IMG/VR virus record: IMGVR_UViG_3300042484_002041
Location: 64,001-128,000 of that record
Direction: 5' to 3' (one strand)
DNA: 64,000 nucleotides
Source of the DNA: a virus
The notes under the pieces were generated by a model. That model did not search any database and was not told where the DNA came from. It saw nothing but the letters and a program-made list of their open reading frames with translations. Each line of letters begins with the position of its first letter. Position 1 is the first letter of the stretch. The position numbers and the translations under genes were made by a program. This document shows, piece by piece, positions 29,459 to 56,156 of this stretch.

Positions 29459-30471
29459 ACTCATACACCAGCTGGCAACCGCTTGAAGAAGTTATTGTGG
29501 GACGAACCTACACCACGGACTACTTTGACTTTATCGATAATGCGCAAGTACGTGGCCAACTACAGCAAATTCTTTTTGAAACACAAGAAGATCTTAGCAA
29601 CTTGGCACGTACCATTGAATTGTTTGGGGCTAAAGTTCAACGTCCAGACTTGCCCGATAAGAAAGATTTTGAGCAGTGGCAAATTCAAGGTCAAGGTGCA
29701 CCACTTCCTCCTCTTACTCCAAGAGACTGGCAAATTACCCTAGGTAACAAGCTGTTACGGGTGTTGCCCATGCCTGAACTGGATCGTATTTGTTCCGAGT
29801 ATGGAGATTCTGTACTTAATCCGCACGGAGACAATTGGGATCCTGACTGCATCTTAAATGGTGCCAGTGCCAGTTGCATTGTACGGGTAGGCCGGGATGT
29901 GTTCTTTGATAATTCAGACTTCTTGCGCCCTGATCAAAGCGCCTGGATCCAGGACAATTGTTTAGATTCCAACTATCGCATCCACGAGGCTGTCACCGAC
30001 GGGCACGGCGATGCTGTGTTTGCTATCCTCAAGCCCGGTGTTATCCTGAGTAGCAAACACGATGTCAATCTCAACTTGGCAAAGGACTTTCCTGGATGGG
30101 ATGTTTGCAAGATTTGGGACAGTAGTATCTGGGCAGCAATGGAAGTAGGCAAGTTCAAGTACGAGCAAAGTCCTGGCGCTTGGTATGTGCAAGGACAAAC
30201 CCCTACTCCTGCATTTACAGAGTTTGTTAATACTTACTTGACCAAGTGGACTGGCTTTGTTGCCGAGACTGTGTTTGATGTCAACTGCTTGGTACTAGAC
30301 GAGTCGCACGTGATCTTTAGTGCATACAATAAAGAAGTGTTTACGTTTTGTCACAAACACGGCATTGAGCCTATTATCAGTGAGCTACGGCATAGTTACT
30401 TTTGGGACGGCGGCATTAGCTGCTGCACACAAGACATTCGGCGCTGCGGCGGGTTAGAAACATACTTGTGA
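29449..30471 (+). CDS. Amidinotransferase (glycine/inosamine-phosphate amidinotransferase family)
   Basis: SWQPLEEVIVG, PRD, GHGD, WDGGISC catalytic Cys. Confidence 0.85.
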   Translation: MRVNSYTSWQPLEEVIVGRTYTTDYFDFIDNAQVRGQLQQILFETQEDLSNLARTIELFGAKVQRPDLPDKKDFEQWQIQGQGAPLPPLTPRDWQITLGNKLLRVLPMPELDRICSEYGDSVLNPHGDNWDPDCILNGASASCIVRVGRDVFFDNSDFLRPDQSAWIQDNCLDSNYRIHEAVTDGHGDAVFAILKPGVILSSKHDVNLNLAKDFPGWDVCKIWDSSIWAAMEVGKFKYEQSPGAWYVQGQTPTPAFTEFVNTYLTKWTGFVAETVFDVNCLVLDESHVIFSAYNKEVFTFCHKHGIEPIISELRHSYFWDGGISCCTQDIRRCGGLETYL

Positions 30472-31760
30472 ATGACCTTGACAACATCTATAAAGAACTA
30501 GGCAAAGACATATGTTTAATGCCTTTCCTGGCGGCCTTCTATCAAACACATAATGTAGCGCAAGTACAAGACGGCGAACTACCAAATTCTGTTCGCCCGT
30601 GTAGTTTAATCACAAAAGATACACCTAGAAGATGGGCAATTACCAATCAAAGTGTGTATGAGGCCAGAAATTCGCCTGCCTGGAGAGAGATTCGGGAACA
30701 GTTTGTCCAAGGCCAATTTAAATCAATAGATGATTGTAGCATTTGTATTCATAATGAATTAGTAAACGGTACTAGTCCCAGAAAGGAAAGCAATCGAGCG
30801 TTAGCACATCAACTAGATATCAACATTGTTGATACTGTAAAACAAATCATTGCAGACGATTACTATGCTCACAATATCTATGCACTAGATTACTATCCTA
30901 GCAACTATTGTAATCTAGAATGCGTAATGTGCGGCAGTGGCTCCAGTAGTCGTAGACAAGTGTTTGAGGTTAAATTTTTAAATCAACCAAGCCGGATTAC
31001 ATTTAACGAGGCTGATCCAGACTTCCTGGACGCATTACATAGAGTACAAGTAATAAACTTTGCCGGTGGCGAAACAATGATGCAACCACAATTTCACAAA
31101 GTGCTGGATTACCAGATTGATAATGATCTAGCCCATAATGTTATTGTTGGCTTCTTGACCAATGCCACTAGCAATACTAGCAAAGTTGATAGTAAATTTC
31201 AACACTTCCGTCAAGTTGTGTGTAGTGTGAGTATAGACGGAGTCGGAGAAGTAATTGAATATCAGCGCCGCGGCTGCAACTGGGCTGAAGTATCAGAGAA
31301 TGCACTTACGCTAATGCATCATACTGATGTCGGTGCTGTGGTTAACTATGTGCTTACCAATATAAATGTATTCAGCTTTATGGACTTTGTTGACTGGTGT
31401 TACACTAACGACTATGGTCCCAAGTATAAAGAAGAGCAACGGAACTTTATCACGATCACACCTGTGTTCAGGGCCGATCATTTAAGCGTCACAGCACTGC
31501 CCCCGGAGTTAAAACACACAGCACTGAGTAGATTACATGCCGGGTTGGTCCGTTATCGTGCGATCAACACTGTGATGTCCAGGTACTACAGTCGTATAAT
31601 CCTGCAGGCAATTGATATTGTGACAGCTGCCAAGCATGATGAATCACACTTGATGCAGTTTGTTCAGTTAATTCAAAAAGAAAATCTTGCAAGTGCCCGG
31701 TCTTTACAGCAAGTGGTGCCTGAATGGGCACCATACTTACAGCCTAACTACAAACCTTAA
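30468..31760 (+). CDS. Radical SAM protein with N-terminal SPASM/Twitch-like domain
   Basis: CLMPF...PC...CSIC; CNLECVMC; GGE; SIDG. Confidence 0.85.
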   Translation: MNDLDNIYKELGKDICLMPFLAAFYQTHNVAQVQDGELPNSVRPCSLITKDTPRRWAITNQSVYEARNSPAWREIREQFVQGQFKSIDDCSICIHNELVNGTSPRKESNRALAHQLDINIVDTVKQIIADDYYAHNIYALDYYPSNYCNLECVMCGSGSSSRRQVFEVKFLNQPSRITFNEADPDFLDALHRVQVINFAGGETMMQPQFHKVLDYQIDNDLAHNVIVGFLTNATSNTSKVDSKFQHFRQVVCSVSIDGVGEVIEYQRRGCNWAEVSENALTLMHHTDVGAVVNYVLTNINVFSFMDFVDWCYTNDYGPKYKEEQRNFITITPVFRADHLSVTALPPELKHTALSRLHAGLVRYRAINTVMSRYYSRIILQAIDIVTAAKHDESHLMQFVQLIQKENLASARSLQQVVPEWAPYLQPNYKP

Positions 31761-33225
31761 CACCGTACTGTTGTTCAAAACGGTCTGCATCAGCGCGATC
31801 ATTAACAATCGGCTCGCCCCTAATGTTAAGGCTAGTGTTAAGCAGCATGGGGCAGCCTGTAAGCATGTGCCAGTCTTCAAGTAGTTGTCTAATCCCGGAA
31901 CCATCCGCAGGCACAGTTTGCACCCGTGCAGTGTTGTCCACATGGCAAATGGCCGGGAACTGCTCCGGATGTCGACATGGGGCAACAATCTGCATGTAGT
32001 GACTAGACTGCCAGTTGTGTGGCATATCAAAGTGTGCACCAGCAAACTCAGCCAACACAACAGGGGCAAAGGGCCGAAACTGCTGCCTACGCTTGATCAA
32101 GTTGACACGGTCTTTGATGTCTGGTCCACGTGGGTCAGCCAGTAAGCTACGGTTACCCAAGGCGCGCGGACCAAACTCTGCACGGCCACTTGCTACACCC
32201 ACAATCTTGTTGGCCAATAGTTCATCAATCACTGCTCGTACTGGGTATGCGCCCGGGATCATATGGCCCAAGAATGCAGTTTTCCAATTCAATCTACGTC
32301 CAAATGCCAGTGCTGCTGCACCCAAGCTGCTACCAGCATCACCCGGGTTGGGCATGATCCATATGTGATCAAACATGCTACCTAGTTTACTGTTGGCAAC
32401 ACAGTTCAGTGCTACTCCGCCCATGTACACTAAGTTGCTCTCGCCTGTGAGCGCACGGGCATGCTGCATGATGTTCCGGACCAGTGCTTCAGTCAATGTC
32501 TGTGCAGCCGCTGCAATGTCTTCTTTACGTAGAAATGGCAGCTCATAAGGATCCAAGCCTATGTGTAGATTCTTTTTAAAACGGGCAGTTTTAATATCAT
32601 CAATGAACTGATCGCGCATCCAGGCCGCGCCCAGATCAGATCCATACGCAGCCATGCCCATGGTGATGTATTCTTCTTCCATGGGCTTCAAGCCTACTGC
32701 CTTGGTAATGGCCGAATAGAAAAGACCAATACTGTGTGGATACCCTTGCCGCCATAACAGTTGGTATTGCGCACGGCCATCTGCTGCGGAATATCCTGCA
32801 CGGTAAATGCTTATAGTATCAAGCTCGCCAATGGCATCAATTACCACAACGGCTGCAGTTTCAAATGGGCTGGTCTGAAAACCCGCTGCGGCATGACTCA
32901 AGTGGTGGCCGGCACAGGTAACACTGGCAGACTCCGGATACCAGCGGCCCAGGTGTTGCTTTAACGCAGTTCGCAAGCGCCAAGGGCCATACAAGTGCTG
33001 CCCGCTGCGCCACTGTTGTATGTTATGCATCCAGGGGCGCTCGTAGTACGCTACTGTAGACCAGTCCCATTGGCTAGCATCCTGTAACAAGGTAGTGTGC
33101 AGGAGTTTATCGTTTTTCTTTTTACTGTACCGCTCGCTATGCCCAGCAAATAGAATCTCGCCGTCGATGCTAATCACAGAGGCTGCAGCGTCATGATAGC
33201 CGGCCGAAATCCCTAATATGTTCAT
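31744..33225 (-). CDS. O-carbamoyltransferase (NodU/CmcH/TobZ family)
   Basis: HDAAA, HHLSHAA, GRAEFGPRALGNRS, FRPFAP, LLNTSLN. Confidence 0.93.
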   Translation of the reverse strand: MNILGISAGYHDAAASVISIDGEILFAGHSERYSKKKNDKLLHTTLLQDASQWDWSTVAYYERPWMHNIQQWRSGQHLYGPWRLRTALKQHLGRWYPESASVTCAGHHLSHAAAGFQTSPFETAAVVVIDAIGELDTISIYRAGYSAADGRAQYQLLWRQGYPHSIGLFYSAITKAVGLKPMEEEYITMGMAAYGSDLGAAWMRDQFIDDIKTARFKKNLHIGLDPYELPFLRKEDIAAAAQTLTEALVRNIMQHARALTGESNLVYMGGVALNCVANSKLGSMFDHIWIMPNPGDAGSSLGAAALAFGRRLNWKTAFLGHMIPGAYPVRAVIDELLANKIVGVASGRAEFGPRALGNRSLLADPRGPDIKDRVNLIKRRQQFRPFAPVVLAEFAGAHFDMPHNWQSSHYMQIVAPCRHPEQFPAICHVDNTARVQTVPADGSGIRQLLEDWHMLTGCPMLLNTSLNIRGEPIVNDRADADRFEQQYGVKVCS

Positions 33226-33869: not shown

Positions 33870-33970
33870 TAACGATAGATAAAAGGATCCCGTTTCCTTA
33901 ACTCTTTGAGTTTTTTACGGTATCGAATTTCTAATCGAATTCGATTGTATAGGTTTTTAATCCAGTTCAT
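33869..33970 (-). CDS. 33-aa micropeptide ending RDPFIYR (SxtK/DUF5989-like)
   Basis: MNWIKNLYNRIRLEIRYRKKLKELRKRDPFIYR; TAATG overlaps at both ends; absent from the ORF track. Confidence 0.75.
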   Translation of the reverse strand: MNWIKNLYNRIRLEIRYRKKLKELRKRDPFIYR

Positions 33971-35067
33971 TATGAGTTTCCTTGTCTAATGATTGCAACT
34001 TGTCGAGCCATAAAGTCACCGTCACTCCAACGATAATCATAATGAGCTGCACTGCTACTTGTTTTTACACTGTAAACATCAAGGTGCTGTACTAATTTAG
34101 TCCATATGTCTTGATACTGTATAGAACCAAATGTGCGCAGTAAATCAACCTGTGCAACTTGCGGATGTCCAATAGTCAAGCTTTTGTCGCTGGGGTCAAA
34201 TCCATTATGGATTAGCCAATCTCGGAACTGAGCAATCTTTTTTTGCTGCCAGGGAAAGGTGCCGGGGTTGTTGGCCCACTCGATGTCAAAGTCTCCGGCT
34301 GCTTCAGTTTGACTTTTTAGTGTCGTCGTAATTAGTTCACTAACGTCCCGGCCCTCATCACAAAACACCTCCCAGTGGTGCTTGCCCACTGCTTTGTTTA
34401 CGCCCACAAACACACCACCTAGGGGCCGGTTAATAGTGTCAACCCCAAACAGTTCGTAGTCTTCTTGATCTAAGGCAAACCTTGGCGCTTGCAGCCAACA
34501 CATCAACTGACTGGGGCGCTGCCATTCAGGTGCTGCTAGTTGCATGCGGAAACTAAGGGCCCAGCTTTCGAACTCATGACAAAGTAGGTTAAGCTGTCTA
34601 ATATGCCACCTTGTTTCGGCGTTGGCCTGGAGGAAGAATGGGCTCATGTTCCCACTTGTGCCTTGCAGGTCTTCAAAGTAACGGTGTAACCAGTTCAAGC
34701 GATTGTGTATAAGATTACGCTTTAATGTAATTCCTGTACGTGCAGATAGCGCATCGTCGCGGTCTGCAATGCAGTTGTCCATTGTGAAGAAGTCATTAAT
34801 TTGATACCCCAAGTCAGCTGCATTAATTGCAGCAATGGATCTGTTTACTTGTTCAAGAATCAACTGCCCATTACGTTTATGCTCTACTATGCCAAAAAAG
34901 CAATAGTTCTTTTCAAGATGATAATTGTTTGTTAGTAATTGATTCAGTGCAGCCAGCCATTTACGCGACAAGCTGCTGTCGTATACATCAACGTATACGG
35001 TCAACGGTTGATTGTCTTGACCGCGTAACCCAATTTCAATCTGATCTAATACTGTTCCACCACTCAT
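33970..35067 (-). CDS. Hypothetical protein in the modification cluster
   Basis: 365-aa ORF coupled to neighbours; LNWLHRYFE / LNLLCHEFE helices. Confidence 0.7.
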   Translation of the reverse strand: MSGGTVLDQIEIGLRGQDNQPLTVYVDVYDSSLSRKWLAALNQLLTNNYHLEKNYCFFGIVEHKRNGQLILEQVNRSIAAINAADLGYQINDFFTMDNCIADRDDALSARTGITLKRNLIHNRLNWLHRYFEDLQGTSGNMSPFFLQANAETRWHIRQLNLLCHEFESWALSFRMQLAAPEWQRPSQLMCWLQAPRFALDQEDYELFGVDTINRPLGGVFVGVNKAVGKHHWEVFCDEGRDVSELITTTLKSQTEAAGDFDIEWANNPGTFPWQQKKIAQFRDWLIHNGFDPSDKSLTIGHPQVAQVDLLRTFGSIQYQDIWTKLVQHLDVYSVKTSSSAAHYDYRWSDGDFMARQVAIIRQGNS

Positions 35068-36334
35068 ATATTTCTTTGTCCTGTTGTAGTATATCTAGCA
35101 TTGTGTAGGTGTCGCTGCGAATTTCTTCCAGCTTTAGAATTCTACGCTTGCCTTTGATCAGACCAGCTTGCCAAGTGTCCGGCCATTGTTGTTCAAACGT
35201 GGGACGATTCTTTAACTGTAACAACACATCACGCAAGGCACCGTCGGGTAGCTGTGCTGCCAGCTGGTCTACCCGACAGTCCAATAACTCCCTGGGCAGT
35301 GCTAAGGGACTAAGCACAATGTCTGGACTGAAGCTGAACACTACCTTGGCCAGCACGCCTACACCATACTCCTGTGCCAGCTGCTGTATGTTCTCTATTT
35401 CAAACAAGCCGGGCAGTGTCAGTGTAAAGTCTATACGCATCTGACGTGGATGTCGTTGCCGTTCTACCCCACGTGCAAAGTTATCCCGCCACTGCGCATA
35501 CTTTAGCCCAGTACGGATGTACTCCCCTGTGGCTCCTGTGCCATCCAGGCTAGCACAGATTTGCCAGTCGCGTATGTTATCAAGAATATCTCGATAAAGA
35601 TTATTGCCTCTGTAATCCACCCTGCTGAGGTTGGTGTTGTATCTAGCGTAAACACGTGGTCCATCTCCTAGTTCAATAATTCTGCGCATGTAGCGCCAGT
35701 GCTGTTCGTACATCAAGGGCTCGCCGCCTACCCAGTATATTTCTTCTACCCGGTGCTGTTCAACTGCTTGTGAGAACTCGGCCTCTACCTGTTGGTCTTG
35801 GAACTGCGTGATCTCTTTACGTACAGCAGGCAGCATCCAGTTGTTCCGGGCATTGCCCCAGTCAATCATGTTGTGCTGTTGCTGCTCTGACTCCCACTGG
35901 CTACTTAACATGTCGCCGCACATGCGACATTTGAAGTTGCACAGATTACTGAAACGGTAGTCCCAGCTGACAGGTTGCATTGTGGTGTAACCAGCGGCAT
36001 CTGTACTGTTAGCCAACTCATCGTATTTGTGCTTGAACAAGTGCCAAAAATAACTACGGTAAACATCTGTATTCAGCAGGCGGTCATTACAGACTTCGCA
36101 CTCGGGCAAGGTCTCCCCGGCCAGCATCCTACGCCGTACACTGCGCATGTGTTCTCCATTCCAGTGCTGCTCTAGAGTGATGGGAATATATCGCCCTGTG
36201 CCTGCTGCGGTGTCAATGTACTGTTGGAAGTTCTGTGCCGGTTCCCTGCTTGCACAGCACATGCGGCGTTCGGTCTGCGGGCTCAGGTAAGTGTGCGTCC
36301 AAGGCGCCAGGCACAGGGTGTCAGGTTTCTGCAT
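35036..36334 (-). CDS. Radical SAM protein with N-terminal SPASM/Twitch-like domain
   Basis: CLAPW...CC...CEVC; CNFKCRMC; GGEP; SLDG. Confidence 0.88.
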   Translation of the reverse strand: MQKPDTLCLAPWTHTYLSPQTERRMCCASREPAQNFQQYIDTAAGTGRYIPITLEQHWNGEHMRSVRRRMLAGETLPECEVCNDRLLNTDVYRSYFWHLFKHKYDELANSTDAAGYTTMQPVSWDYRFSNLCNFKCRMCGDMLSSQWESEQQQHNMIDWGNARNNWMLPAVRKEITQFQDQQVEAEFSQAVEQHRVEEIYWVGGEPLMYEQHWRYMRRIIELGDGPRVYARYNTNLSRVDYRGNNLYRDILDNIRDWQICASLDGTGATGEYIRTGLKYAQWRDNFARGVERQRHPRQMRIDFTLTLPGLFEIENIQQLAQEYGVGVLAKVVFSFSPDIVLSPLALPRELLDCRVDQLAAQLPDGALRDVLLQLKNRPTFEQQWPDTWQAGLIKGKRRILKLEEIRSDTYTMLDILQQDKEIYEWWNSIRSD

Positions 36335-37232
36335 AGTTCAGTAAAGGATAAATTATTTCTTCTATTATGTGTTTGGTCACCAGTTGTGTATCAAAAAATA
36401 ATGCATGATTATGTCTAAGTTTCTGTTCAGTGAGTGTGTCATAGGGTTGTTTATTAAATTGCTGTACAATGTTTACCAAGATATCTAATCGGTTGAGCCA
36501 GTCGGGCTCAGTGTCGTAGCTTTCATCAAACATGTTTTCGAATGTTTCAAACCCTAAACTCTTTAATAATTTTAAACTACCAGGTTGTCCCATTATAATA
36601 AAAGGGTGGCGAAAAGCAATAGGCTTGTAAGTTTTTTCTGTTATAAAAACTGTATTATTAACCGGCGGGTCAACTATAGACTCTAACACCATACTAAAAC
36701 ATGTTTGATCATACCAACTTGCGTTGAAGAATCTTTGCGAATCAATTGACGTCATGTCGTCGTCGGGTAGGCGGCGGCCTTTGCTAACATAACTCCAAAC
36801 GAAATCATCTAGCCAGGGCTGCAACTTTCTTTCAGCTAGATCCCTGTGTACTTTTCTCCTACCAATGGGCATTAGTGCCAGATGTTTATAGTTCTTACTG
36901 GGCCGATATGTGTTGTATCCAAGATATGTGTACCATAAACACTCGTAATACCTAAACCAATTTGGGTCCTGTAAAATATACTTTGAGTTGTCATCGGACA
37001 TAACCTCCCATAAATTATCATACACAATTTTATATCCGCCATCAATAAAATGCTGCCGAATACTAGTAGTAGGTGCGTAATAGTTGGCACAAAAAATACT
37101 GCATTTCTTGTCGTAAGTTTTGCTTGAATCGTACTGCTCAACCGACAGGTACGGCTCAATGATTGTACGGAACCAGGGTTGTATTAACGGTTTTGATTTT
37201 TCTAGTATTAGAGTTGGTTTAGCCCTTAGCAT
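36321..37232 (-). CDS. 'TEK' glycosyltransferase-like protein (GT10-like)
   Basis: FITEKTYKPI...GFETF..MFDESYD. Confidence 0.75.
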   Translation of the reverse strand: MLRAKPTLILEKSKPLIQPWFRTIIEPYLSVEQYDSSKTYDKKCSIFCANYYAPTTSIRQHFIDGGYKIVYDNLWEVMSDDNSKYILQDPNWFRYYECLWYTYLGYNTYRPSKNYKHLALMPIGRRKVHRDLAERKLQPWLDDFVWSYVSKGRRLPDDDMTSIDSQRFFNASWYDQTCFSMVLESIVDPPVNNTVFITEKTYKPIAFRHPFIIMGQPGSLKLLKSLGFETFENMFDESYDTEPDWLNRLDILVNIVQQFNKQPYDTLTEQKLRHNHALFFDTQLVTKHIIEEIIYPLLNYAET

Positions 37233-37236: not shown

Positions 37237-38454
37237 TTATCGATTAGGACCTGTATATCCGATAGCTGTTGCTAGTTCTGGATGATCGGTGCGAAGATCC
37301 TGTTTGCGCTTCCAGTCTAGGTCTTCGACCTTCATACGCAACACGTTACCATCTAGGCTTACTCCACGTTGCATAAACTCAATTATGTTATTGAACTCTA
37401 GTCTATTACGCTCCGACACTTGTGCTGTTTGTAAGCGCAGGGCAATAGTGTCCTTAGCCGCCTGTGGCAAGGTTGAGATACTAAAGTAGTATGCTTCGTG
37501 CATCATGTTCCAGTACACAAAGTCAAACGCCTGTTGGTCAATCCAGTTGGCCACACCTTCAAGGTACGCTACATTAAACACATTGACTGTGGTGCATACT
37601 TGCAGCTGAATATTAGTGTGACTGCTACGGAGTTCGCGGAAACGTTGTATGTTCTCCTGCACTTCGGTCCAGACAGCATTGGTGCGCTGGTATTCAAAAC
37701 GTGCGCCTGTATCATCAATGCTGAGTGCAATCTCCACGGTTTTAAAATGGCGCCAGATGTCCGGGCCTCTTTCCGGGAAGTTGGTTCCATTTGTGTTGTA
37801 ATGGATCTCAACTTGATGGGCAATGCCAAGATCCACTATGCCTTGCAGCATGTCAAAATGCTGCTGGATCATAAATGGTTCCCCACCTGTGAATTCAATA
37901 TAACGTATCTGATCCAGCACTCGGGCAATCTCTCCCCAGAACTGTTGATTCTCCCGGGGCCAGGCACCAGCACGAAGCATTTGATAATGGAAGCTTTCTT
38001 TTTTCTTCTCCGGGGTCAGGAACTGTAGCTCCTCTGTAGCAAACGAGCTAGAACTCCAAGAACCACAAATACGGCATTTGAGATTACAGATGTTGCCTAG
38101 TTTAAGATCAAGAAACACCAATGGTCGTGCATCCGCAGTCCACTCGGATTCCGGGATCATGTGTTTGAGACGATTTAGCGTGTGCATACGCTTGCTGGTG
38201 CGACCAGACCTCTCTTCATTCCAACACTTACGGCACGTTGCAGGCTGTTTTTTATCTAAAAAATCCTGCCGTAGTCGTTGCATGTATTGACTTGACTGTA
38301 CTACAGAAAGATCTGCCGAGACAAGATCAAACTTTATACCGGCATCATCTACAATCTCTTCCTCTGCTAGGCAACAAGGGCGTACAGTGCCAATGGGACT
38401 AGCTTCTAAGCTGACCCAAGGCAGTACGCAAAACTTATCGTGTGGTATTTTCAT
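37237..38454 (-). CDS. Radical SAM protein with N-terminal SPASM/Twitch-like domain
   Basis: CVLPW...PCC...CRKC; CNLKCRIC; GGEP. Confidence 0.88.
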   Translation of the reverse strand: MKIPHDKFCVLPWVSLEASPIGTVRPCCLAEEEIVDDAGIKFDLVSADLSVVQSSQYMQRLRQDFLDKKQPATCRKCWNEERSGRTSKRMHTLNRLKHMIPESEWTADARPLVFLDLKLGNICNLKCRICGSWSSSSFATEELQFLTPEKKKESFHYQMLRAGAWPRENQQFWGEIARVLDQIRYIEFTGGEPFMIQQHFDMLQGIVDLGIAHQVEIHYNTNGTNFPERGPDIWRHFKTVEIALSIDDTGARFEYQRTNAVWTEVQENIQRFRELRSSHTNIQLQVCTTVNVFNVAYLEGVANWIDQQAFDFVYWNMMHEAYYFSISTLPQAAKDTIALRLQTAQVSERNRLEFNNIIEFMQRGVSLDGNVLRMKVEDLDWKRKQDLRTDHPELATAIGYTGPNR

Positions 38455-46902: not shown

Positions 46903-46904
46903 TA

Positions 46905-47975
46905 CTACCCAAATACATTATTAATTTTATATTGTTGCTCTTGCGCAAATTCCCAAAACCGTTGTTCGTTGTGCTTGAGGTCTGGCAACATATCGGTATA
47001 CATCTGTTTGATTTGCTGTTTGGAAAGCCTGGTTAAAAACTTTATCACAGATACGATTGAATCGTGTATTTGGTGTTCTGGAATATCCTCTAGTTCGATA
47101 CCATCAAACCAGTGCGTAAATGTTCGGAATCCATTGTCTCTTAGATACCGATAAATCTTTGTTTGGCCGTTTAGTATAAAAGGTCTCAATCCTAGTATGG
47201 GCTTCCATGTTTTCTCAGTGACAAACATATTGTCCCAGGGAAAGAATTCAGATTCGCAGACTATATTTAAAAAATGTGTTTGCCAGATATCCAGACGCCC
47301 TAGACTCAGTAAGTCGTACGGGATCCCTCCAAAATTGTTATGCACCAGGAATCTATTATTATAACTGTAGTCCTGGGCATTTTCTTCTACTGTCAAATAC
47401 AAGTCTGTTTTTAGTCCCTGGCTAACATCGTAATCAACATCATTCTTGCCCAGGGTTACAATGCCAAACTGTTCTAGCTTATTAGAGTATATTTTTTCAA
47501 CCAACTCAATTCGGTGCGGCTTTGGTTTTCTATTATAGCAAAGGTAGTAGTTATCTACTTCAGTAAGTAGGATCTGATCCTGGCTGTATCTGATAAAATC
47601 TTCTGCCGTTATAGTCGATGAAAAATTAAATGCAAACTCCGACTGCTCAAAGCCCCCAATATAATAGGCTTGTTTTACTTGTAGATTCTTTTCAATCTCT
47701 GTTATTTGAGCAGGCAGTAGGAATATTGGTTCAGTAGATGCCATCCAAAATAAATTATCAAATTGTACTTTATCTTTGATCAATTTGATAACATTATTGT
47801 ATATACTGTTGTTATTTCCAAACTGTGGCCCGAACCAGGTCAGGTTGATCAGTAGGTTCGATTCGTCTTTGAATCTAGAACTAATTTGATCTTGTATATT
47901 TTTAACTAACATGTGTTCTTGCGGTCCCCATTGCTCTTGTGGAGAAACCGCAGTGCCTATATAAGTTACAGTCAT
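46905..47975 (-). CDS. 'TEK' glycosyltransferase-like protein (GT10-like)
   Basis: IVCES...FVTEKTWKPI...GFRTF. Confidence 0.75.
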   Translation of the reverse strand: MTVTYIGTAVSPQEQWGPQEHMLVKNIQDQISSRFKDESNLLINLTWFGPQFGNNNSIYNNVIKLIKDKVQFDNLFWMASTEPIFLLPAQITEIEKNLQVKQAYYIGGFEQSEFAFNFSSTITAEDFIRYSQDQILLTEVDNYYLCYNRKPKPHRIELVEKIYSNKLEQFGIVTLGKNDVDYDVSQGLKTDLYLTVEENAQDYSYNNRFLVHNNFGGIPYDLLSLGRLDIWQTHFLNIVCESEFFPWDNMFVTEKTWKPILGLRPFILNGQTKIYRYLRDNGFRTFTHWFDGIELEDIPEHQIHDSIVSVIKFLTRLSKQQIKQMYTDMLPDLKHNEQRFWEFAQEQQYKINNVFG

Positions 47976-48763
47976 TGTCGCATGCCTTGAAAAACTGTTG
48001 TTTTAATTTTTTGGTTATCGTTGTCGATTGCTCGGAGCAACTCAAAGTCCAGTTTGTTTTCTTTAAGATAGTTAATTAACACTTTTACATCCTTGGGCAA
48101 ACACATCCCTCCATAACCACGTAGAGTTTCGCTGCAATCCATATAGTTGTCAGACGCAACGTCCCTAAGTAGGTATGCTTCTTTTATTAGATTGTAGTTA
48201 GCATTGGCAGCCTGACATACCTCATACATAACATTTGAAAATGCTACTCTGACAGCATTGAACACATTATTATAATATTTCAATATTTCAGCTTCGGTAG
48301 GGGAGAGTTTTTTGATATTGTCCGGGAGGGTTCCGTGACTTTCTACAACCAACTGATATGCTCGATCGCTTGCTGTTCCAATGGCCAATAACTTGTGGTT
48401 TGTAACGAAGTCTTCAACTGCACATCTTTCACGCAAAAACTCCGGCACAAAACATATATCTAACGTTGTTTGTTTGCTTAACATTTCGGTAGTGCCTGGC
48501 GTCACAGTGCTTTTTATAGCAACTACACCTGTGTATTGATAGTCATTTAATAAATTAACAACATCAATGACATTAGACTGGTCAATTGCTCCATCATTCG
48601 ATAACGATGTTGATACACATATATAAACAATATCTGTATCAAGTACATCATTGATGGTAGTGCGTAATGCTAAATCGTGTATGCTTACTTGATGTTTCTG
48701 TAATAAAAATCCTTGTCTACATGCTTCGCCAACTACACCGACTCCAACGATTCCGACTTTCAC
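47972..48763 (-). CDS. UDP-glucose/GDP-mannose dehydrogenase family protein (short form)
   Basis: GVGVVG, KSTV.PG, PEFLRE, GYGGMCLPKD. Confidence 0.88.
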   Translation of the reverse strand: MKVGIVGVGVVGEACRQGFLLQKHQVSIHDLALRTTINDVLDTDIVYICVSTSLSNDGAIDQSNVIDVVNLLNDYQYTGVVAIKSTVTPGTTEMLSKQTTLDICFVPEFLRERCAVEDFVTNHKLLAIGTASDRAYQLVVESHGTLPDNIKKLSPTEAEILKYYNNVFNAVRVAFSNVMYEVCQAANANYNLIKEAYLLRDVASDNYMDCSETLRGYGGMCLPKDVKVLINYLKENKLDFELLRAIDNDNQKIKTTVFQGMRQ

Positions 48764-49635
48764 GGCAATGACTCCAGGGTTAATTTAATCCCTGTATTTA
48801 AGTTAACATTTTGCGTATACTCTATTTTTGATTTTAACAAGGATATATCTGGACATCGTCTGCTAACAGAACCTAGCGGTGCCGGATGTAACACCAGCCG
48901 GCCACTGACATTAAGATATGTTTTAATTAGATTTGCTACTGCCAGGATTGATATTTCTTCGTCAGAGCCAACATTGATTGGACCATTGATCGGAGCGTCT
49001 AGTAACTTGATAGTTGCATCAATTGCATCAGTAATATAAAAAAACGATCTAGTGTTACTGTGTCCATGTAAATCTGTGTTACCCTGGCGCAATCTATTAG
49101 CAAACTCTGGAATAAAATGATCCACTTGCCCGGGACCATAAATGTTATGATATCTAATTATTGTAAAGGGTTGGCCGAACTGTTGATGGGCAGCAGCACA
49201 CAACAGCTCAGATGCAATTTTAGATCCTCCATAACTCCACCGTGGATTTAATATGTCATTGACTGTCAGTGGCACTTGTTCATCAGTCGGTACCAAATAT
49301 CCAAATGTATCAACACTGCCAGCATAAGATTCACAAGTACCGGTGAAGATAAAATGGTTACACTGATTCAGATACCGGTCCAGTAAGTACTGTGTCGGTA
49401 AAATATTGTTTGTAGCAACGTCCCAGGGGTTGGTATAAAAATACTTTGTACCATTGAACGCTGCGGCGTGAAATACGATATCAACATCGGGTAGATTTTT
49501 AACAGTGGTTTGATCACATAAATCAATGCCAATTTTCTTATCAGCGCAATACACTGTATATCCATTCTTTTCAAGTGCTGTTACCAAATAAGAACCAATA
49601 AATCCGCTGCTGCCCGTGACTAGTATTTTTTTCAC
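48760..49635 (-). CDS. NAD-dependent nucleotide-sugar epimerase/dehydratase
   Basis: TGSSGFIG, YGGSK, RYHNIYGP. Confidence 0.9.
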   Translation of the reverse strand: MKKILVTGSSGFIGSYLVTALEKNGYTVYCADKKIGIDLCDQTTVKNLPDVDIVFHAAAFNGTKYFYTNPWDVATNNILPTQYLLDRYLNQCNHFIFTGTCESYAGSVDTFGYLVPTDEQVPLTVNDILNPRWSYGGSKIASELLCAAAHQQFGQPFTIIRYHNIYGPGQVDHFIPEFANRLRQGNTDLHGHSNTRSFFYITDAIDATIKLLDAPINGPINVGSDEEISILAVANLIKTYLNVSGRLVLHPAPLGSVSRRCPDISLLKSKIEYTQNVNLNTGIKLTLESLP

Positions 49636-51014
49636 TGTTTACTCCAGTACTCACATTCGGCCCACCAGGTGCGCATCTCGGGAAATGTCTTCAAGAAATC
49701 TGTTCCTCTTCTGCGATCGTGCTCACTAAAGAATCGATAAAAGTCTGCACGAGCCTGAGAATGATTTTGCCCTAATCCACTACGCATCCAGGCAAGATCT
49801 CGATCTAGTCGAGCAACTTCGTAGTCCTTGAAACCTTTAAAAGGTAAGCTAGCGTTTTCTTTATTCTCTGACATCCAGGTATGCACTTGATCTAATCTAG
49901 TAACATAGCTTTCGGGCAAGATCTGCAAGCTTTGCCAAGCAGGTTCGCGCAGCACAGGCGTGTCAAACCACACCCGTTGATAAGTTTCAGAATAACGATT
50001 GCGTAATTCTAATATGCCAGCAAACAAGGTTTCTAGACTAGGTATACTCAGGTTGTTCATTGTTATGATGAACGTTAAGCTGTTATAGCTAGGGATTTCT
50101 GTGAGGAATTGATTTACCCTATCCCATAACAGATCAAAGTCTAGTCCGTGTCTGATGTATTCAGCCTGTGCACCCCATGCGTCCAAGCTCACGTACTGCA
50201 TAAAGTGTTCGATACGACCGTCGCACAGTTGCTTAACGGATGACAAGTATTTCTGCCACAGCTTTTCTTCCACACTAAAGTTGCTAGTAACATTCAGGTG
50301 CAGTTTAGGGCTGGGGTTAGCAATCACATAGTCAAACACACGGTATGTGTTCTTGTCCATGAGTGGCTCGCCACCGGTCATTCTAAAGTGTTCCAGCTGC
50401 GGGTATAACTCGGGCCACCAGGCCCAGAACGCATCCACATACGGATTGTCTTCACGGACAGGGATAACACGCCTTGACCCTGTAAAGTGGTCAGGTGCAT
50501 TGTGTGGTGTTTTAGTAGGATAGGCACCGTGCTGGTCAACTTCGGCTTGCCAACTACTACTGAATTGCGGGCTACAGTAGCTGCATTTCAAGTTGCAAGC
50601 ATGATTAAAGTTGACTTCTACATAGCTAGGAATCACATCATCCTCGTTGCCGGTGCTGTTCTTTATCTTATCAAAGTCCAGGGAAGCCCAGGGTTCTCCA
50701 CTACGGTAGTGTCTATCACTGAGCTTGCCTTGATCTTCCATGTTCCAACAGTACTGACATTCAACTGGTTTCTCCCCGCGCAGCATCATCTGTCTCTGTG
50801 TTTTTTTGTGCGTGGTGTTATGCAGTGCAGACGGATTAAGTTTTATTTCAGCTGGGTCAATTTGATGCAACGGAGGGTGGTAACAGCTATTATTCAATCC
50901 AGTGGGCAAGTGTAAACTGACTTGTTTCCATTTAGCTAGACATAGTGCAGGTCCAAGATCCTGTTTCATTTGTTCGGCTGAATTTAAAAATATGCTTTTG
51001 TTTGCTGCGGTCAT
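49632..51014 (-). CDS. Radical SAM protein with N-terminal SPASM/Twitch-like domain
   Basis: CLAKW...SCYHPP...CQYC; CNLKCSYC; GGEP; paralog of 43715-45052. Confidence 0.88.
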   Translation of the reverse strand: MTAANKSIFLNSAEQMKQDLGPALCLAKWKQVSLHLPTGLNNSCYHPPLHQIDPAEIKLNPSALHNTTHKKTQRQMMLRGEKPVECQYCWNMEDQGKLSDRHYRSGEPWASLDFDKIKNSTGNEDDVIPSYVEVNFNHACNLKCSYCSPQFSSSWQAEVDQHGAYPTKTPHNAPDHFTGSRRVIPVREDNPYVDAFWAWWPELYPQLEHFRMTGGEPLMDKNTYRVFDYVIANPSPKLHLNVTSNFSVEEKLWQKYLSSVKQLCDGRIEHFMQYVSLDAWGAQAEYIRHGLDFDLLWDRVNQFLTEIPSYNSLTFIITMNNLSIPSLETLFAGILELRNRYSETYQRVWFDTPVLREPAWQSLQILPESYVTRLDQVHTWMSENKENASLPFKGFKDYEVARLDRDLAWMRSGLGQNHSQARADFYRFFSEHDRRRGTDFLKTFPEMRTWWAECEYWSKQ

Positions 51015-51958
51015 AATTGTGTTATTGTTGTTTGATAAGTGTGTTGTTGGAGCAAATTATAGTTGTGATCCAACGAGTACTGCATATCCCAATACATTGC
51101 TTCTAGCTCAACTGTTGTTTTTTGTGATAGCATATCTATTAGATTGAAAATCTTTTTCAATCTGTCTCCGCTGGAGAATCCATCATACTCTTCGTCCCAA
51201 AAATCATTGAACGTCCTAAATCCCATTTGTCGCAAGTATGCCAGGTAATCTTTAGATCCAAATATAATAAATGGTTTCTTTAATAACATAGGTCTTACTG
51301 TTTTTTCTGTAGGGAAAAAAGTCCGGCCTGCGATATGAGATTCTACTACTATATCTACTAGCGTATGCTTATACATGCTAGTTAATGGATCATCGTAGTG
51401 GTATCCTGCTGTGGCTGTATATCCCGCAGAACTATTTTGTAGCAGTGGTAAACGCGGTATCATCTCGCCGGCTGCCGAGGCTTGCTGTACATCATAGGTT
51501 AACAGCTTGTCTAATTCGAACTGTATTAAATTATTAGGATCAATCGTGGCAGAAAAATGTACTAGCGACTGATCGAAATAGTTTTTCCATACATAGCCAG
51601 CTAATCCTAGTCGCCCGGCCGTAGGTCTATGATAGAAACAAAGAAATCTCTTGCTTAAATCCCATGTGTGCAACTCTGGGTTTATTTCATACGTATTTCG
51701 AATCCAAAAGTTAGGACCATTAAACTGTATATTATATTTCTGATGTTGTTCTAATGGATTCCATGTCTTAATACAAACAGACTCAAACTTAAACGCATCT
51801 AACAGTGTGTATACGCCTAGGTTTTCCAAACAAATTGCCTCGGGATCTAACTCTAACTCAATTGCTTGCCCCTGATGTTTCGTCAGAAACTGAATAAACT
51901 CAGTAAGGTTCCAGAAACGATCACTTGTAGCACTGATTACAAAACTAGGTGTTACCAT
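51011..51958 (-). CDS. 'TEK' glycosyltransferase-like protein (GT10-like)
   Basis: IVVES...FPTEKTVRP...GFRTF..FWDEEYD. Confidence 0.75.
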   Translation of the reverse strand: MVTPSFVISATSDRFWNLTEFIQFLTKHQGQAIELELDPEAICLENLGVYTLLDAFKFESVCIKTWNPLEQHQKYNIQFNGPNFWIRNTYEINPELHTWDLSKRFLCFYHRPTAGRLGLAGYVWKNYFDQSLVHFSATIDPNNLIQFELDKLLTYDVQQASAAGEMIPRLPLLQNSSAGYTATAGYHYDDPLTSMYKHTLVDIVVESHIAGRTFFPTEKTVRPMLLKKPFIIFGSKDYLAYLRQMGFRTFNDFWDEEYDGFSSGDRLKKIFNLIDMLSQKTTVELEAMYWDMQYSLDHNYNLLQQHTYQTTITQL

Positions 51959-52875
51959 CCCTCTTGCTGCCGTATAACATCAATCTCTCGTACCATGACA
52001 CCACGGCTGTGCCAGTTGCTGCGGTAGTGGTGCTTGAAGAATTTACTTTGATCCGCATCAAATAAATTGACCGGGAGTCCCAGTTGTGTATTAAGTGCTA
52101 CAGCAGTGGAGGTGATCATGTGGTAGGCGCTTTGTTCCGAAACTTCATTCCAAATCTGTTCAAGGGCATCAAACGACTGTACTTCAGTATGGTCCCACTC
52201 ACTTAGCATGGTCTTGAATGTACCTAATCTGGCGCCAGCAATGGCCCAGTTGCCGTGTTCAATATCCTGCCCGACGTTTTGCCATACAGTAAGGTTGTCA
52301 AGGTTACGTTGGTGTACACGATCTCTGAACTCGCTTAGTGTGGGCTTGCGTCCTTTGTCCAGGCACATCTTAACACCTTCTCTAAACCCGGCGCGCCAGG
52401 CGTGCTGTGCTGATCCATTAGGGTATGTAGTAGAGAAGCAGTCATGCATGGACCAGTACAAGGGGTCAAAGCAAAACTCCACTTGTGTCTCTGTGCGCCC
52501 ATCTGTAGCCTCATGGGTACGCATGTTTTGCACAAAGGTACGGGTCCAAGAACTCATGCCTCCATTGCCGTACATAAGGCCATTGACGTGATTTCGGGCG
52601 CGCCAACGGAACACTGCGTTTTGGTAATCCTCTGTGGGCAAGTCTAGAGTTTGATTAAAGAACGCAGGATCAGGCATGTTGTCGCCGTCGATCAGGATGA
52701 ATCGTTCGGTATCACTTGCCTCTGCTGCTGCCTTGTGTGCTGCATCACTGCCCTTGACTCCGTCAACGCGGCGTGCCCAGGGTACCATATTCCGAATCTT
52801 GATCCAGAACTCTTCCTTTTGTGGTTCATCATAGCTTAGATAAACTACATCTAACTCTGCTACATCAACTTTCAT
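51952..52875 (-). CDS. GT-A-fold glycosyltransferase-like protein
   Basis: DVVYLSYDEP, RVDGVKG, DxD motif IDGDN, AWRAGFREG. Confidence 0.65.
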   Translation of the reverse strand: MKVDVAELDVVYLSYDEPQKEEFWIKIRNMVPWARRVDGVKGSDAAHKAAAEASDTERFILIDGDNMPDPAFFNQTLDLPTEDYQNAVFRWRARNHVNGLMYGNGGMSSWTRTFVQNMRTHEATDGRTETQVEFCFDPLYWSMHDCFSTTYPNGSAQHAWRAGFREGVKMCLDKGRKPTLSEFRDRVHQRNLDNLTVWQNVGQDIEHGNWAIAGARLGTFKTMLSEWDHTEVQSFDALEQIWNEVSEQSAYHMITSTAVALNTQLGLPVNLFDADQSKFFKHHYRSNWHSRGVMVREIDVIRQQEGW

Positions 52876-53218
52876 ATTTCTTTGTCCATTTGATATGCGG
52901 CGATAGGGCCGATACTACAATGCTAACATCACTAGGCGCACAAGGTGTGCCGTTCTCGGCGCCAGGAGTTAACTTAGCAAGTGCTGCGGTGCGAGCCGCT
53001 ACTGTTACTAACTGTTGATCCACAACCCGCACATGATAAGATTGTGTTGCATAGGTAGCATGATCAATCTCAATATAGTTACCTGGCAAATCCTCCATGC
53101 TGTACACAATTGGCATGCCTGAATCATCATGATACAGTCTATAAAACACCGGAGGCGGTGCAGCACGATCCCAAGCTGCCCAAGCTGCCCAGAAGTTGTC
53201 TGTGGTTTCGTTACTCAT
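52865..53218 (-). CDS. Hypothetical protein
   Basis: Coupled ORF MSNETT... Confidence 0.6.
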   Translation of the reverse strand: MSNETTDNFWAAWAAWDRAAPPPVFYRLYHDDSGMPIVYSMEDLPGNYIEIDHATYATQSYHVRVVDQQLVTVAARTAALAKLTPGAENGTPCAPSDVSIVVSALSPHIKWTKKYES

Positions 53219-53985
53219 AACCAATTCTTAACATGATAGTGAAACATGCCCCATTGCGCAACTGTGTTAATTCGCACGCCAGGGTCGGTGTGTTCCCAGA
53301 CCAGTTCCCGTGTCCAGTTGTCAGTCTGAATAGGATTTATATATCGTTTCATGTGCACAATCTGTGGGCCAACACCAGTAGGTAAAGTTACACGCTCGGG
53401 GCCCATGATTTGTGCAGCCATTGCGTATACAACGTCAGTTGTAGCAGCCTCGTCGGGGAACTTGAGTAAGGTACGATACTGAGCCCAGTTTTCAAATATT
53501 CGACGCACCCACTCAAAAAACTCTTGCGCGGTTGTGCTCAATCGCCAATAGGTTATGGCGTTGTATACATCAGGCAGGTTGTTGTCATCAAACAGCTTGC
53601 GGTAGCGGCGACTCGTAGCAGGCTGATCATAAAAATCTCTTGCGCCTTGACTAACAACAACATCACGATGTTCAAACAGTGTCCACCAATGGTCGATAGG
53701 AGAAGCTGCGATCATGTCAGCTTCCAACTTGATAGTCTGACGGAATGGGCTGGCTCTAAACACTTGCCAGTCGTTGGCAAACCCGCCTAGATTACCAGAC
53801 GGCAGTGTCCTCACAATGTCAAAGTCAGATTCCTCAACTGCTGAATCAGTTAACAAGCACACCCGAGCCTCGGGGTGCAGTTGGTGTATGCTACGGGCCA
53901 AGTGTCTAGCGCAATTTACATAGTCAACTGTGTCTGTATTGACTGCAGGGATTAAGTATCCACGTTCTTCAAGCATGGGCGACAA
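53215..53985 (-). CDS. GT8-like glycosyltransferase
   Basis: SPFRQTIKLEADM; C-terminal FHYH. Confidence 0.6.
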   Translation of the reverse strand: MSPMLEERGYLIPAVNTDTVDYVNCARHLARSIHQLHPEARVCLLTDSAVEESDFDIVRTLPSGNLGGFANDWQVFRASPFRQTIKLEADMIAASPIDHWWTLFEHRDVVVSQGARDFYDQPATSRRYRKLFDDNNLPDVYNAITYWRLSTTAQEFFEWVRRIFENWAQYRTLLKFPDEAATTDVVYAMAAQIMGPERVTLPTGVGPQIVHMKRYINPIQTDNWTRELVWEHTDPGVRINTVAQWGMFHYHVKNWL

Positions 53986-54766
53986 TGTTCATTAGAGTGC
54001 GCTTGCCCATGGCATGGAAGTCTTGGCCATTGAACTCTATCCACTTTCTCTGCGATTGCGCAGTCAGATAGTTGACCCTAAAATGGTCGGTATCAGTCTG
54101 TACTAGTTCATGTTCAGGGGTCAAGCTAGCCAAGGGCCAGGCAATGTTGGGTTGGTGCAGTACATGCCCATTAACTATGTTAAGTGCTATGCTCAGTGCA
54201 TGGTCGTTGCGGTAGGTGCTGCGCGGGTTTCCGTACAGGTTGCAGTAATGTTTCCAATTTTCTCGAACCATTTGCATACTTCCAAAAATTAACTCGGCTG
54301 TGGTGCTGCGTCTAAACATCATGACTGTAGCCCAATACATTGGCATACGATTGCGACCAAAGTAGTTTAGATCATTGAATGTTTGTAATCCTGTAACATC
54401 ATATGCCAGTCGGTGACAGAGAAAATCTTGCTGCGTCTGCAATGTGTTCTCAAGTTGCGTGCTTGCAACTACATAGTCGGCATCTAGGACTAAGGTTTGA
54501 TCCCAGGGTGTTATCTCGTATGCTGTGGTGCGGTTAGAGTTGTGCCATACAACATTGGTACCAAAATCAGTAAAGTGCCGTGTGCTTGATCCTTCTGGCA
54601 CGGCGCGAATTACTTTGTCAAATGCATCTACGCGCTCTGTGCTGTCAGTTACTACTGCAACAGGAATATTCAAGTGACGGCGAATCCGATTGGCAGACCA
54701 AGCAGCCATGGCCAAATAGTCAATTTCTGAATTGTTAAATGCAAAAATTAATGCACCAGTTGTCAT
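53969..54766 (-). CDS. GT8-like glycosyltransferase
   Basis: TPWDQTLVLDADY (DxD), RND, HAMGK. Confidence 0.65.
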   Translation of the reverse strand: MTTGALIFAFNNSEIDYLAMAAWSANRIRRHLNIPVAVVTDSTERVDAFDKVIRAVPEGSSTRHFTDFGTNVVWHNSNRTTAYEITPWDQTLVLDADYVVASTQLENTLQTQQDFLCHRLAYDVTGLQTFNDLNYFGRNRMPMYWATVMMFRRSTTAELIFGSMQMVRENWKHYCNLYGNPRSTYRNDHALSIALNIVNGHVLHQPNIAWPLASLTPEHELVQTDTDHFRVNYLTAQSQRKWIEFNGQDFHAMGKRTLMNIVAHA

Positions 54767-55106: not shown

Positions 55107-55121
55107 GTACTAAATTGTCCG

Positions 55122-56156
55122 TTACCCTTGGATTGCTTGTACTAGACCCACACCAAAACTTATTCGATTTTTAAATTCGTTATATGTTTTCGTAAGGCAT
55201 TCCATAGCAGCATTGTGCTCCAAATGCTCAACATTGCCAATAACATCATGATCGGCATAATTATCCCAAGAACCCCAATCTTCGAGTTTTGTGATCCCCC
55301 CAAAAAATCCGTAATCGACACATACTTGACAAAAATTTTGTATATCAAAGTAATTGTCGCGTTGGATTACAAGAGTTAAGGCAACTGATATTTTGTTAGT
55401 CTGGGTTTGCTCTTTAAGGTAATCAAAGTTATCAAGTAATTGTTCCCATTTACCGCCGAGTCTAACTTTTTCATATACTTCTTTGCTACCGGCATCGATG
55501 CTGATTAGATATTCGGTGATACGATCACGTATGCTGCTGTCTGCAATTTGTTTTCTTATCAAGAGCCCGTTAGTAAACAGTTTTATATGTTGATCTTTTT
55601 TAGGCTTAAATCGATGTATCAACGGACGTAGTATAGAACTAGCCAGAGGGTCGCCATTACCGCTCATGATAATTCTGCACGGATGGTCAAAGTTTTCTAA
55701 TAGTGTTACTAAATGATTAACCTGTACTAGTTTTATATCATAGTCAGGTCCACTTGTGATCATTTTTGCATCGCGTCTGCAACTAGGGCAACGAAGATTG
55801 CAGCTTTCATCTATGTTAATTGATATAGTGTAAATGGGCCGACTAATATTGCCATTGGTTATGCCGCAGCGCGAAACAGCACAGTGTGAGAATTTTTTAC
55901 TTGCTATATCTTGCTGCAATTCTAACGCAGTAGGACTAGTCCATACTTGCTCTAATGTTGTAAAGTCTGTAATTTTACCCACACTTATCGGTAACCATGC
56001 TTCGCACTCACAAATAAAACAATCACCTTTCCAATCCACTAGTAATGTTTTGTTAGGTATGTCACAGGAATGTGGTATGTCTAACTGCAATTGTTTGTTT
56101 CGTGGGATTGCAGTATATGAAAATTGATTAGCAATTGGTATAACAAGAGTGGCCAT
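55122..56156 (-). CDS. Radical SAM protein with N-terminal SPASM/Twitch-like domain
   Basis: CDIP...FICEC.AWLP; CNLRCPSC; GNGDP; paralog of 39178-40434. Confidence 0.85.
   Translation of the reverse strand: MATLVIPIANQFSYTAIPRNKQLQLDIPHSCDIPNKTLLVDWKGDCFICECEAWLPISVGKITDFTTLEQVWTSPTALELQQDIASKKFSHCAVSRCGITNGNISRPIYTISINIDESCNLRCPSCRRDAKMITSGPDYDIKLVQVNHLVTLLENFDHPCRIIMSGNGDPLASSILRPLIHRFKPKKDQHIKLFTNGLLIRKQIADSSIRDRITEYLISIDAGSKEVYEKVRLGGKWEQLLDNFDYLKEQTQTNKISVALTLVIQRDNYFDIQNFCQVCVDYGFFGGITKLEDWGSWDNYADHDVIGNVEHLEHNAAMECLTKTYNEFKNRISFGVGLVQAIQG

Follow-up and report, generated by a model that had tools for sequence, protein, structure and literature searches.

The 64,000-nucleotide window analysed here comprises bases 64001–128000 of a 167.6-kb IMG/VR fragment from a large, uncultured lake phage (IMGVR_UViG_3300042484_002041; CheckV completeness 48%), and it carries an island of eight genes for radical S-adenosylmethionine (SAM) enzymes in which a domain of the SPASM/twitch type lies ahead of the catalytic barrel. 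Genes are named here by their lower coordinate in the window. Tail-fibre-like genes and virion genes directly precede the island on the same strand (virion/tail-type genes lie at 57215–63980). The island also contains an amidinotransferase gene, an O-carbamoyltransferase gene and six paralogs, which we call TEK, of a predicted glycosyltransferase (GT) fold. Two further genes of the same radical SAM family, NF033640, are found on the 167.6-kb fragment outside the window.

Radical SAM genes with an N-terminal SPASM/twitch-type domain

An earlier note on this DNA had claimed eight radical SAM paralogs, each with a Cys-rich segment ahead of the CxxxCxxC core, that fall into the subfamilies 43715/49632, 39178/55122 and 35036/37237/41129, with 30468 by itself; we find all of this borne out. 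The eight open reading frames (ORFs) are present and intact (Table 1), each contains a single CxxxCxxC at residues 119–195, and four aligned Cys precede it in every case, arranged as C-x17/18-C (x28 in 30468) and then C-x2-C, with C-x4-C as the second pair in 39178 and 55122. All cluster and SAM motifs are intact in the window copies, and all eight have both glycines of the GGE motif (G201 and G202). All-versus-all BLASTP reproduces the proposed groups, pairing 43715 with 49632 (33% identity, E = 1e-76) and 39178 with 55122 (26%, E = 3e-31), joining 35036, 37237 and 41129 (25–29%, E = 1e-27 to 6e-41), and leaving 30468 closest to 37237 (26%, E = 2e-24).

Searches with the Pfam profiles SPASM (PF13186) and Radical_SAM (PF04055) place the auxiliary-cluster domain first, as the note had also claimed, and it is N-terminal in all eight ORFs. 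SPASM matches N-terminal to Radical_SAM exceed the gathering cut-off in 37237, 39178, 41129 and 55122 and fall just below it in 35036. The match in 41129 spans residues 31–96 (E = 1.7e-12, profile positions 1–67 of 67) and is followed by Radical_SAM at 134–278; the corresponding positions are 85–138 (30.9 bits) and 194–331 in 39178, and 31–97 and 117–276 in 55122. Radical_SAM matches all eight ORFs, four of them above its gathering score of 29.5, 35036 at 29.3, and 41129, 43715 and 49632 at 20–25 bits.

NCBIfam NF033640 (N_Twi_rSAM, “twitch domain-containing radical SAM protein”), a whole-protein hidden Markov model with a curated cut-off of 170 bits, covers six of the eight ORFs from end to end at 218–393 bits, and the E-values for this family, down to 1e-117, rule out chance. 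By sequence, these six are NF033640 members, and 39178 and 55122 belong to a shorter sister family marked by its C-x4-C pair. A review describes SPASM and twitch domains as C-terminal extensions (PMC9012708). The reversed order is real at the level of sequence and model, and to that extent the permutation put forward in the note stands. It is no new discovery, since NCBI curators had already named a family for its N-terminal twitch, and the arrangement is best described as unusual and already catalogued.

The AlphaFold2 model of 41129 (predicted local distance difference test score, pLDDT, 94.9; predicted template-modelling score, pTM, 0.91) shows the topology expected of a twitch-like domain, with C31, a β-hairpin (37–47), C49, helices, and C92xxC95 at the start of a helix, followed by the barrel (~127–340) and a C-terminal helical bundle (344–418). 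The note's N-terminal Cys segment is thus modelled as twitch-like. An alignment of 58 phage and bacterial sequences, from which 39178 and 55122 were left out, keeps C31, C92, C95, the CxxxCxxC triad and GGE invariant, and C49 nearly so; among the family ORFs of 160 loci, phage and bacterial, the N-terminal Cys pattern recurs in 528 of 541. Four Cys provide for one fully ligated auxiliary cluster, and the auxiliary cluster of BtrN has four Cys ligands (PMC9012708). Profile match and model together identify the N-terminal segment as a homolog of SPASM/twitch domains, with four predicted Cys ligands for one [4Fe-4S] cluster.

The barrel of the model is nearest to that of BlsE (Z 13.1, root-mean-square deviation 3.5, 222 residues aligned), followed by anSME (Z 12.9), CteB (12.6), SkfB (12.1) and viperin (11.7); SuiB and ChlB are also among the structural neighbours, and Foldseek agrees. 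The sequential structure aligners aligned the barrel only (model residues ~111–390).

Two copies have noteworthy N-termini. The listed start of 43715 is a TTG at 45118, which gives a 74-nt overlap with the upstream gene, and its NF033640 match begins at residue 37, so the true start is probably downstream of that TTG. In 39178, an 84-residue extension with no family match precedes the first auxiliary Cys.

Conservation and distribution

We compared the island with 50 related phage loci with full flanks; related loci were found by a search with an alignment of three paralogs, and the bacterial loci are biased towards 41129-like sequences. Five core paralogs (35036, 37237, 41129, 43715 and 49632) adjoin each other in 50 of 50 related phage loci, where the core set also adjoins the carbamoyltransferase, and their orthologs there have median identities of 80% (41129), 73% (35036 and 49632), 68% (43715) and 67% (37237). 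The remaining copies, 30468, 39178 and 55122, are accessory: none of the 50 loci has an ortholog of 30468 at ≥50% identity, and 39178 occurs in just 2. A FastTree phylogeny, whose output shows four of the eight window copies, places 35036 and 37237 in clades with good support whose other members are mostly their own phage orthologs, and 30468 and 39178 on long branches; 41129, judged by identity, groups likewise with its own orthologs. Five paralogs of such ancient divergence always occur as one set, which suggests that each does a different step.

The N_Twi family is very common in freshwater phage metagenomes. The family profile matches 7,822 representative clusters at E ≤ 1e-30, one paralog alone has >7,700 metagenome matches (the 120 listed are all ≥80% identical), and the sister family of 55122 has 750 metagenome relatives, most of which list SPASM before Radical_SAM. 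Fused double N-twitch proteins of ~800–1100 residues, with two profile matches, also exist. The earlier note had called the clade phage-expanded, which holds only in part: the phage loci have the fixed five-paralog set, but tandem arrays also occur on contigs from metagenome-assembled genomes (MAGs) assigned to bacteria (Bdellovibrionota, Elusimicrobiota and others), with up to 8 copies in 17 kb. Some of these contigs may themselves be viral. L001, L002 (Haliscomenobacter MAG) and L003 (Legionellales MAG) carry 5–6 radical SAM genes with a phage-type carbamoyltransferase and a homolog of 33970, at 36–63% identity, and with the phage cassette present they are probably phage contigs binned into MAGs; L001 and L002 also have TEK genes. 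Another contig with a bacterial MAG label (L004, 4.6 kb) contains three radical SAM copies only.

Among cultured phages, the 255-kb Vibrio phage K566 (OZ196521.1) has four radical SAM genes with the N-twitch pattern in one block at 8977–15713, three annotated as radical SAM and the fourth (14451–15713) as hypothetical; no TEK-family neighbours were detected there. A megablast search with 10 kb of the island against deposited phages gives no match.

The surrounding island

The minus strand forms a single packed unit between 58585 and 33970, with start/stop overlaps of 1–17 nt through most of it (33970–55068), a larger overlap of 74 nt at 45045–45118, and gaps of only 53, 53 and 9 nt. The radical SAM genes are part of this tightly packed, late-type unit beside the tail and virion genes. 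On the plus strand, the start of 30468 overlaps the end of the amidinotransferase gene.

Table 1. Radical SAM genes and other genes of the island, with window coordinates; fractions refer to the 50 related phage loci
Gene	Position	Strand	Assignment	Remarks
22367, 23293, 24026	22367–25201	+	SDR epimerase/4,6-dehydratase; SGNH/DUF6071; DegT sugar aminotransferase	Pfam
27199	27199–28311	+	TEK paralog	By paralogy; head of plus-strand arm
28295	28295–29458	+	TEK paralog	By paralogy; head of plus-strand arm
29449	29449–30471	+	Predicted amidinotransferase	Ends ...GGISCCTQDIRRRG; 40/50, median 82% identity
30468	30468–31760	+	Radical SAM	Divergent accessory copy; NF033640 218.5 bits
31744	31744–33225	-	O-carbamoyltransferase (NodU/CmcH/TobZ type)	Pfam Carbam_trans_N and Carbam_trans_C; 50/50
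33970	33970–35067	-	Conserved core protein	Immediately downstream of 35036; 50/50, median 61% identity
35036	35036–36334	-	Radical SAM	Core paralog; NF033640 284.3 bits
36321	36321–37232	-	TEK paralog	Between 37237 and 35036; 14-nt overlap with 35036 start; ends 4 nt before 37237
37237	37237–38454	-	Radical SAM	Core paralog; NF033640 320.2 bits; Pfam SPASM at residues 9–78
39178	39178–40434	-	Radical SAM	Accessory, sister family; NF033640 85.5 bits, below cut-off
41129	41129–42388	-	Radical SAM	Core paralog; best NF033640 match, 393.3 bits; modelled
43715	43715–45118	-	Radical SAM	Core paralog, SC.H subtype; NF033640 308.4 bits
45045	45045–46181	-	TEK paralog	Modelled copy; GT-B by model, GT10-like motif
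46905	46905–47975	-	TEK paralog	By paralogy
47972, 48760	47972–49635	-	Truncated UDP-glucose dehydrogenase-like; SDR epimerase	Pfam; accessory
49632	49632–51014	-	Radical SAM	Core paralog, SC.H subtype; NF033640 326.3 bits
51011	51011–51958	-	TEK paralog	4-nt overlap with 49632
51952, 52865, 53215, 53969	51952–54766	-	Conserved core genes	51952: 307 aa, ...ILIDGDN...; 52865: 119 aa; 47–49/50
55122	55122–56156	-	Radical SAM	Accessory, sister family; 344 aa, without C-terminal helical bundle; NF033640 37.7 bits, below cut-off

Pfam, NCBIfam and PHROGs give no match for most of the neighbours in the island. Single-sequence scans of Pfam and NCBIfam find nothing for 29449, and a 21-sequence profile (A10) run against PDB sequences retrieves AGAT (2.8e-19), HsvA (4.1e-14), StrB1 (5.6e-14) and SxtG (1.1e-13). 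In the C-terminal block with the catalytic Cys, ...GGiSCCTQDIRRRG aligns with ...GGFHCWTCDVRRRG, and this profile homology, catalytic-Cys motif included, predicts an amidinotransferase of the AGAT/StrB1 type. The closest solved relatives of 31744 by PDB sequence are the decarbamoylnovobiocin carbamoyltransferase (7e-53), GdmN (8e-50) and TobZ (3e-37).

A C-terminal V-E-S...F-TEKT-KP...GFRTF...DESYD block is common to the six TEK paralogs; they have no Pfam, NCBIfam or PHROG match, and their family profile finds no relatives among PDB sequences. The AlphaFold2 model of 45045 (pLDDT 95.8) has GT-B glycosyltransferases as all of its top matches, over the full length, among them 8xsg (Z 12.9), the Helicobacter pylori α1,3-fucosyltransferase 2nzx (Z 12.5 over 268 residues, with 16% identity the highest among the matches), GtfC, Gtf3, SdgB and T4 DNA glucosyltransferases. 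Like the GT10 α1,3-fucosyltransferases (H. pylori FucT, 2NZW/2NZX), TEK proteins are modelled as full-length GT-B with an ...E-S...F-TEK... block, but they have no Pfam GT10 match at the thresholds used and no PDB sequence match, and the Z-score of 2nzx is tied with those of many other GT-B families. An Atlas link of 36321 to GT10 (score 0.80) is a weak lead. Judged by the model, TEK looks like an uncatalogued phage glycosyltransferase family.

Several conserved core proteins have less to identify them. No match to 33970 is found in Pfam, NCBIfam, PHROGs or Atlas, or among PDB sequences with a profile; 54763 and 56210 are core proteins as well. Alignments show that 53215 and 53969 are paralogs with an LVLDADxVI DxD-like motif, and this type of motif, taken by itself, hints that they and 51952 may be GT-A transferases; profiles of 51952 and of 53215/53969 find no relatives among PDB sequences. 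The C-terminal part of the 676-residue ORF 25170 (25170–27200) is related to 51952. Pfam identifies two SGNH-like proteins in the neighbourhood of the island.

The GC content falls to 0.39–0.40 at ~42000–44000 and 46000–50000, against 0.44–0.49 nearby. Most of the genes there (42388, 43083, 46165, 46905, 47972 and 48760) are rare in related phages or missing from them, and the core genes 43715 and 49632 are included as well; the pattern suggests inserted cassettes within a conserved core. For 47972 there is no match in the 50 related loci, and 48760 has only distant relatives, at 26% identity in 14 of 50. The product of 47972 (47972–48763, 263 residues) is without the first ~64 NAD-binding profile positions and the whole C-terminal UDP-binding domain; with both domains affected, the gene may be split or only a remnant.

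Candidate substrates and known systems

We consider it about an even call that the N-twitch radical SAM enzymes help to build or tailor an amino-sugar glycan or glycoconjugate. Each enzyme most likely binds two [4Fe-4S] clusters, a SAM-cleaving cluster on CxxxCxxC and, on the twitch-like domain at the N-terminus, an auxiliary cluster with Cys as its only ligands. Such auxiliary clusters have been argued to accept an electron in two-electron oxidations (PMC9012708), and in these enzymes, on the model put forward for BtrN, the auxiliary cluster would withdraw an electron from the substrate radical, so that the outcome would probably be a two-electron oxidation or a related radical rearrangement. 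Together with the six predicted GT-B proteins, the amidinotransferase, the O-carbamoyltransferase and the amino-sugar enzymes, the radical SAM enzymes would make an unusual amino-sugar glycan or glycoconjugate with guanidino and carbamoyl groups, which would end up on the virion or on the surface of the infected cell.

Sugar tailoring is favoured because the neighbouring enzymes have sugar and small-molecule relatives, genes of glycosyltransferase fold are many, and no RRE or precursor candidate is found. Script-called ORFs around the bacterial homologs, tallied by Pfam (100 neighbours, 17 loci), are most often radical SAM (11), PhyH dioxygenases (6), GT2 glycosyltransferases (5) and TPR proteins, and ten fused relatives that we examined comprise five with TPR, Sel1 or ankyrin repeats, one with GT2 and four with extra regions that have no Pfam match. 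The GT2 fusion, the GT2 genes near bacterial homologs and a Eubacterium homolog beside a PIG-L (GlcNAc-type) deacetylase support the sugar context. The partners differ among cultured Firmicutes: that Eubacterium homolog also neighbours an ordinary radical SAM enzyme with C-terminal SPASM, an acyltransferase, and a protein with PP-binding, Peptidase_C39_2 and DUF4872 domains; a Paenibacillus homolog has an acyl carrier protein (ACP), two ketosynthases and a ketoreductase as neighbours.

Several observations weigh against a glycan product. The Paenibacillus and Eubacterium homologs sit among ACP, ketosynthase and acyltransferase genes and not among glycan genes, and the nucleotide-sugar genes of the island are variable among related phages and lie outside the conserved core. 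Half of the fused relatives carry TPR, Sel1 or ankyrin repeats, and TPR genes recur near bacterial homologs; such repeats usually bind proteins. The sugar-acting BlsE is tied within one Z unit with anSME, CteB and SkfB, which act on peptides or proteins, so the fold points to the SPASM/twitch branch and says nothing on sugar versus peptide. A phmmer search with 41129 against PDB sequences finds no match, and hence no solved relative by sequence, and literature searches on N-terminal twitch or SPASM domains, on NF033640, on glycan clusters of phages that include radical SAM genes and on radical SAM enzymes of polysaccharide pathways yielded no description of the N_Twi family. The earlier note had the enzymes acting on individual sugar residues: this fits the sugar and small-molecule enzymes around them, but is weakened by a fold that does not separate sugar from peptide and by the fusions to protein-binding repeats.

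A more specific form of the glycan proposal has each of the five diverged core enzymes carry out its own radical reaction without oxygen, be it oxidation, epimerisation, deoxygenation or C–C bond formation, on an amidinated, carbamoylated amino-sugar glycan; with this chemistry in the style of aminoglycosides, giant lake phages would decorate their virions or rewrite the host surface. We hold this version tentatively, as possible though not probable.

The repeat fusions and the recurring TPR genes would instead suit enzymes whose targets are amino-acid residues in a peptide or protein (for instance a virion protein such as a tail fibre, or a product like a ribosomally synthesised and post-translationally modified peptide, RiPP), introducing cross-links, epimerisations or oxidations while the glycosyltransferases glycosylate the same protein. 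This would also agree with the position of the island directly after the virion genes, with the presence among the structural neighbours of anSME, CteB, SkfB, SuiB and ChlB, which all act on peptides or proteins, and with that of the protein O-glycosyltransferases GtfC, Gtf3 and SdgB among the TEK matches; cross-linking of an entire protein by a SPASM radical SAM enzyme has been reported (PMC13692751). Pfam and NCBIfam, however, give no PqqD/RRE-type match in the eight ORFs, the C-terminal domain is all-helical in the model, with no RRE-like sheet, and the few gaps between 33970 and 58585 are too short to hide a precursor gene. Neither of two small conserved ORFs (101 and 119 residues) has a Cys-rich or repeated core, and the relatives of the amidinotransferase, the carbamoyltransferase and DegT act on small molecules. 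Some radical SAM enzymes that act on peptides or proteins have neither an RRE nor an adjacent precursor gene. Weighing these points, we regard a protein or peptide substrate as rather unlikely, if a serious competitor.

The small-molecule character of those relatives also raises the prospect that the product of the cassette is a small molecule, free or bound to a carrier (like an aminocyclitol, aminoglycoside or polyamine), or a nucleic-acid hypermodification, with the radical SAM enzymes acting on that scaffold. Both transferases have only small-molecule enzymes as their closest solved relatives (AGAT, HsvA, StrB1 and SxtG for 29449, and the novobiocin enzyme, GdmN and TobZ for 31744); the Firmicutes homologs lie in ACP/ketosynthase/acyltransferase clusters, PhyH dioxygenases are the commonest bacterial neighbours other than radical SAM, and T4 DNA glucosyltransferases are among the GT-B matches of TEK. 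Six GT-B paralogs and the DxD-motif proteins suggest an oligo- or polysaccharide, however, and the island has a tail/host-recognition position, where radical SAM cassettes have been reported in the host-recognition cluster of pelagimyophages (PMC7029224); a product of this kind seems to us unlikely.

That the copies are redundant or decaying duplicates, as a shared architecture and tandem arrangement might suggest, is very improbable and we reject it, since the paralogs are 20–33% identical to each other whereas each core copy is 67–80% identical to its orthologs in 50 of 50 loci, with motifs intact and, in the tree rows shown, window copies in separate clades with phage orthologs.

If the five-step glycan proposal is right, it would provide the first assigned set of reactions for a family of thousands. 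Knowing the chemistry of N_Twi enzymes would add a new branch to radical SAM enzymology and reveal what the variable region beside the tail genes produces in large aquatic phages, with a bearing on host recognition, virion glycosylation and superinfection exclusion. Together with its amidinotransferase and carbamoyltransferase, the conserved set of five enzymes is a defined cassette for such work, and the cultured Vibrio phages K566 and K567, with four distant N-twitch copies, are a possible genetic system.

Among known systems, the NF033640 family is the closest, six of the ORFs sharing its order of N-terminal four-Cys domain, barrel and helical C-terminus. BtrN, the 2-deoxy-scyllo-inosamine dehydrogenase of butirosin biosynthesis and founding twitch enzyme, resembles the window enzymes in having one four-Cys auxiliary cluster domain and a small-molecule/sugar context (PMC9012708), and the barrel has its best structural match in BlsE; in BtrN and BlsE, however, the twitch follows the barrel, whereas in the window enzymes it precedes the barrel and a C-terminal helical bundle is added, and neither enzyme has a significant sequence match to them. 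The SPASM maturases anSME, CteB, SkfB and SuiB are tied with BlsE in the barrel (Z 12.1–12.9), and the N-terminal domain matches Pfam SPASM, but the window enzymes have four auxiliary Cys, and so one predicted cluster and not two, the reversed domain order, and no RRE or precursor that we could find. Aminoglycoside and aminocoumarin tailoring differs in that the island is phage-borne, lies beside tail genes and has many genes of glycosyltransferase fold, with no cyclitol synthase among its annotatable genes; what the island shares with these pathways is a set of relatives of their enzymes (StrB1, TobZ, the novobiocin carbamoyltransferase and DegT), which it combines with radical SAM enzymes of the twitch type.

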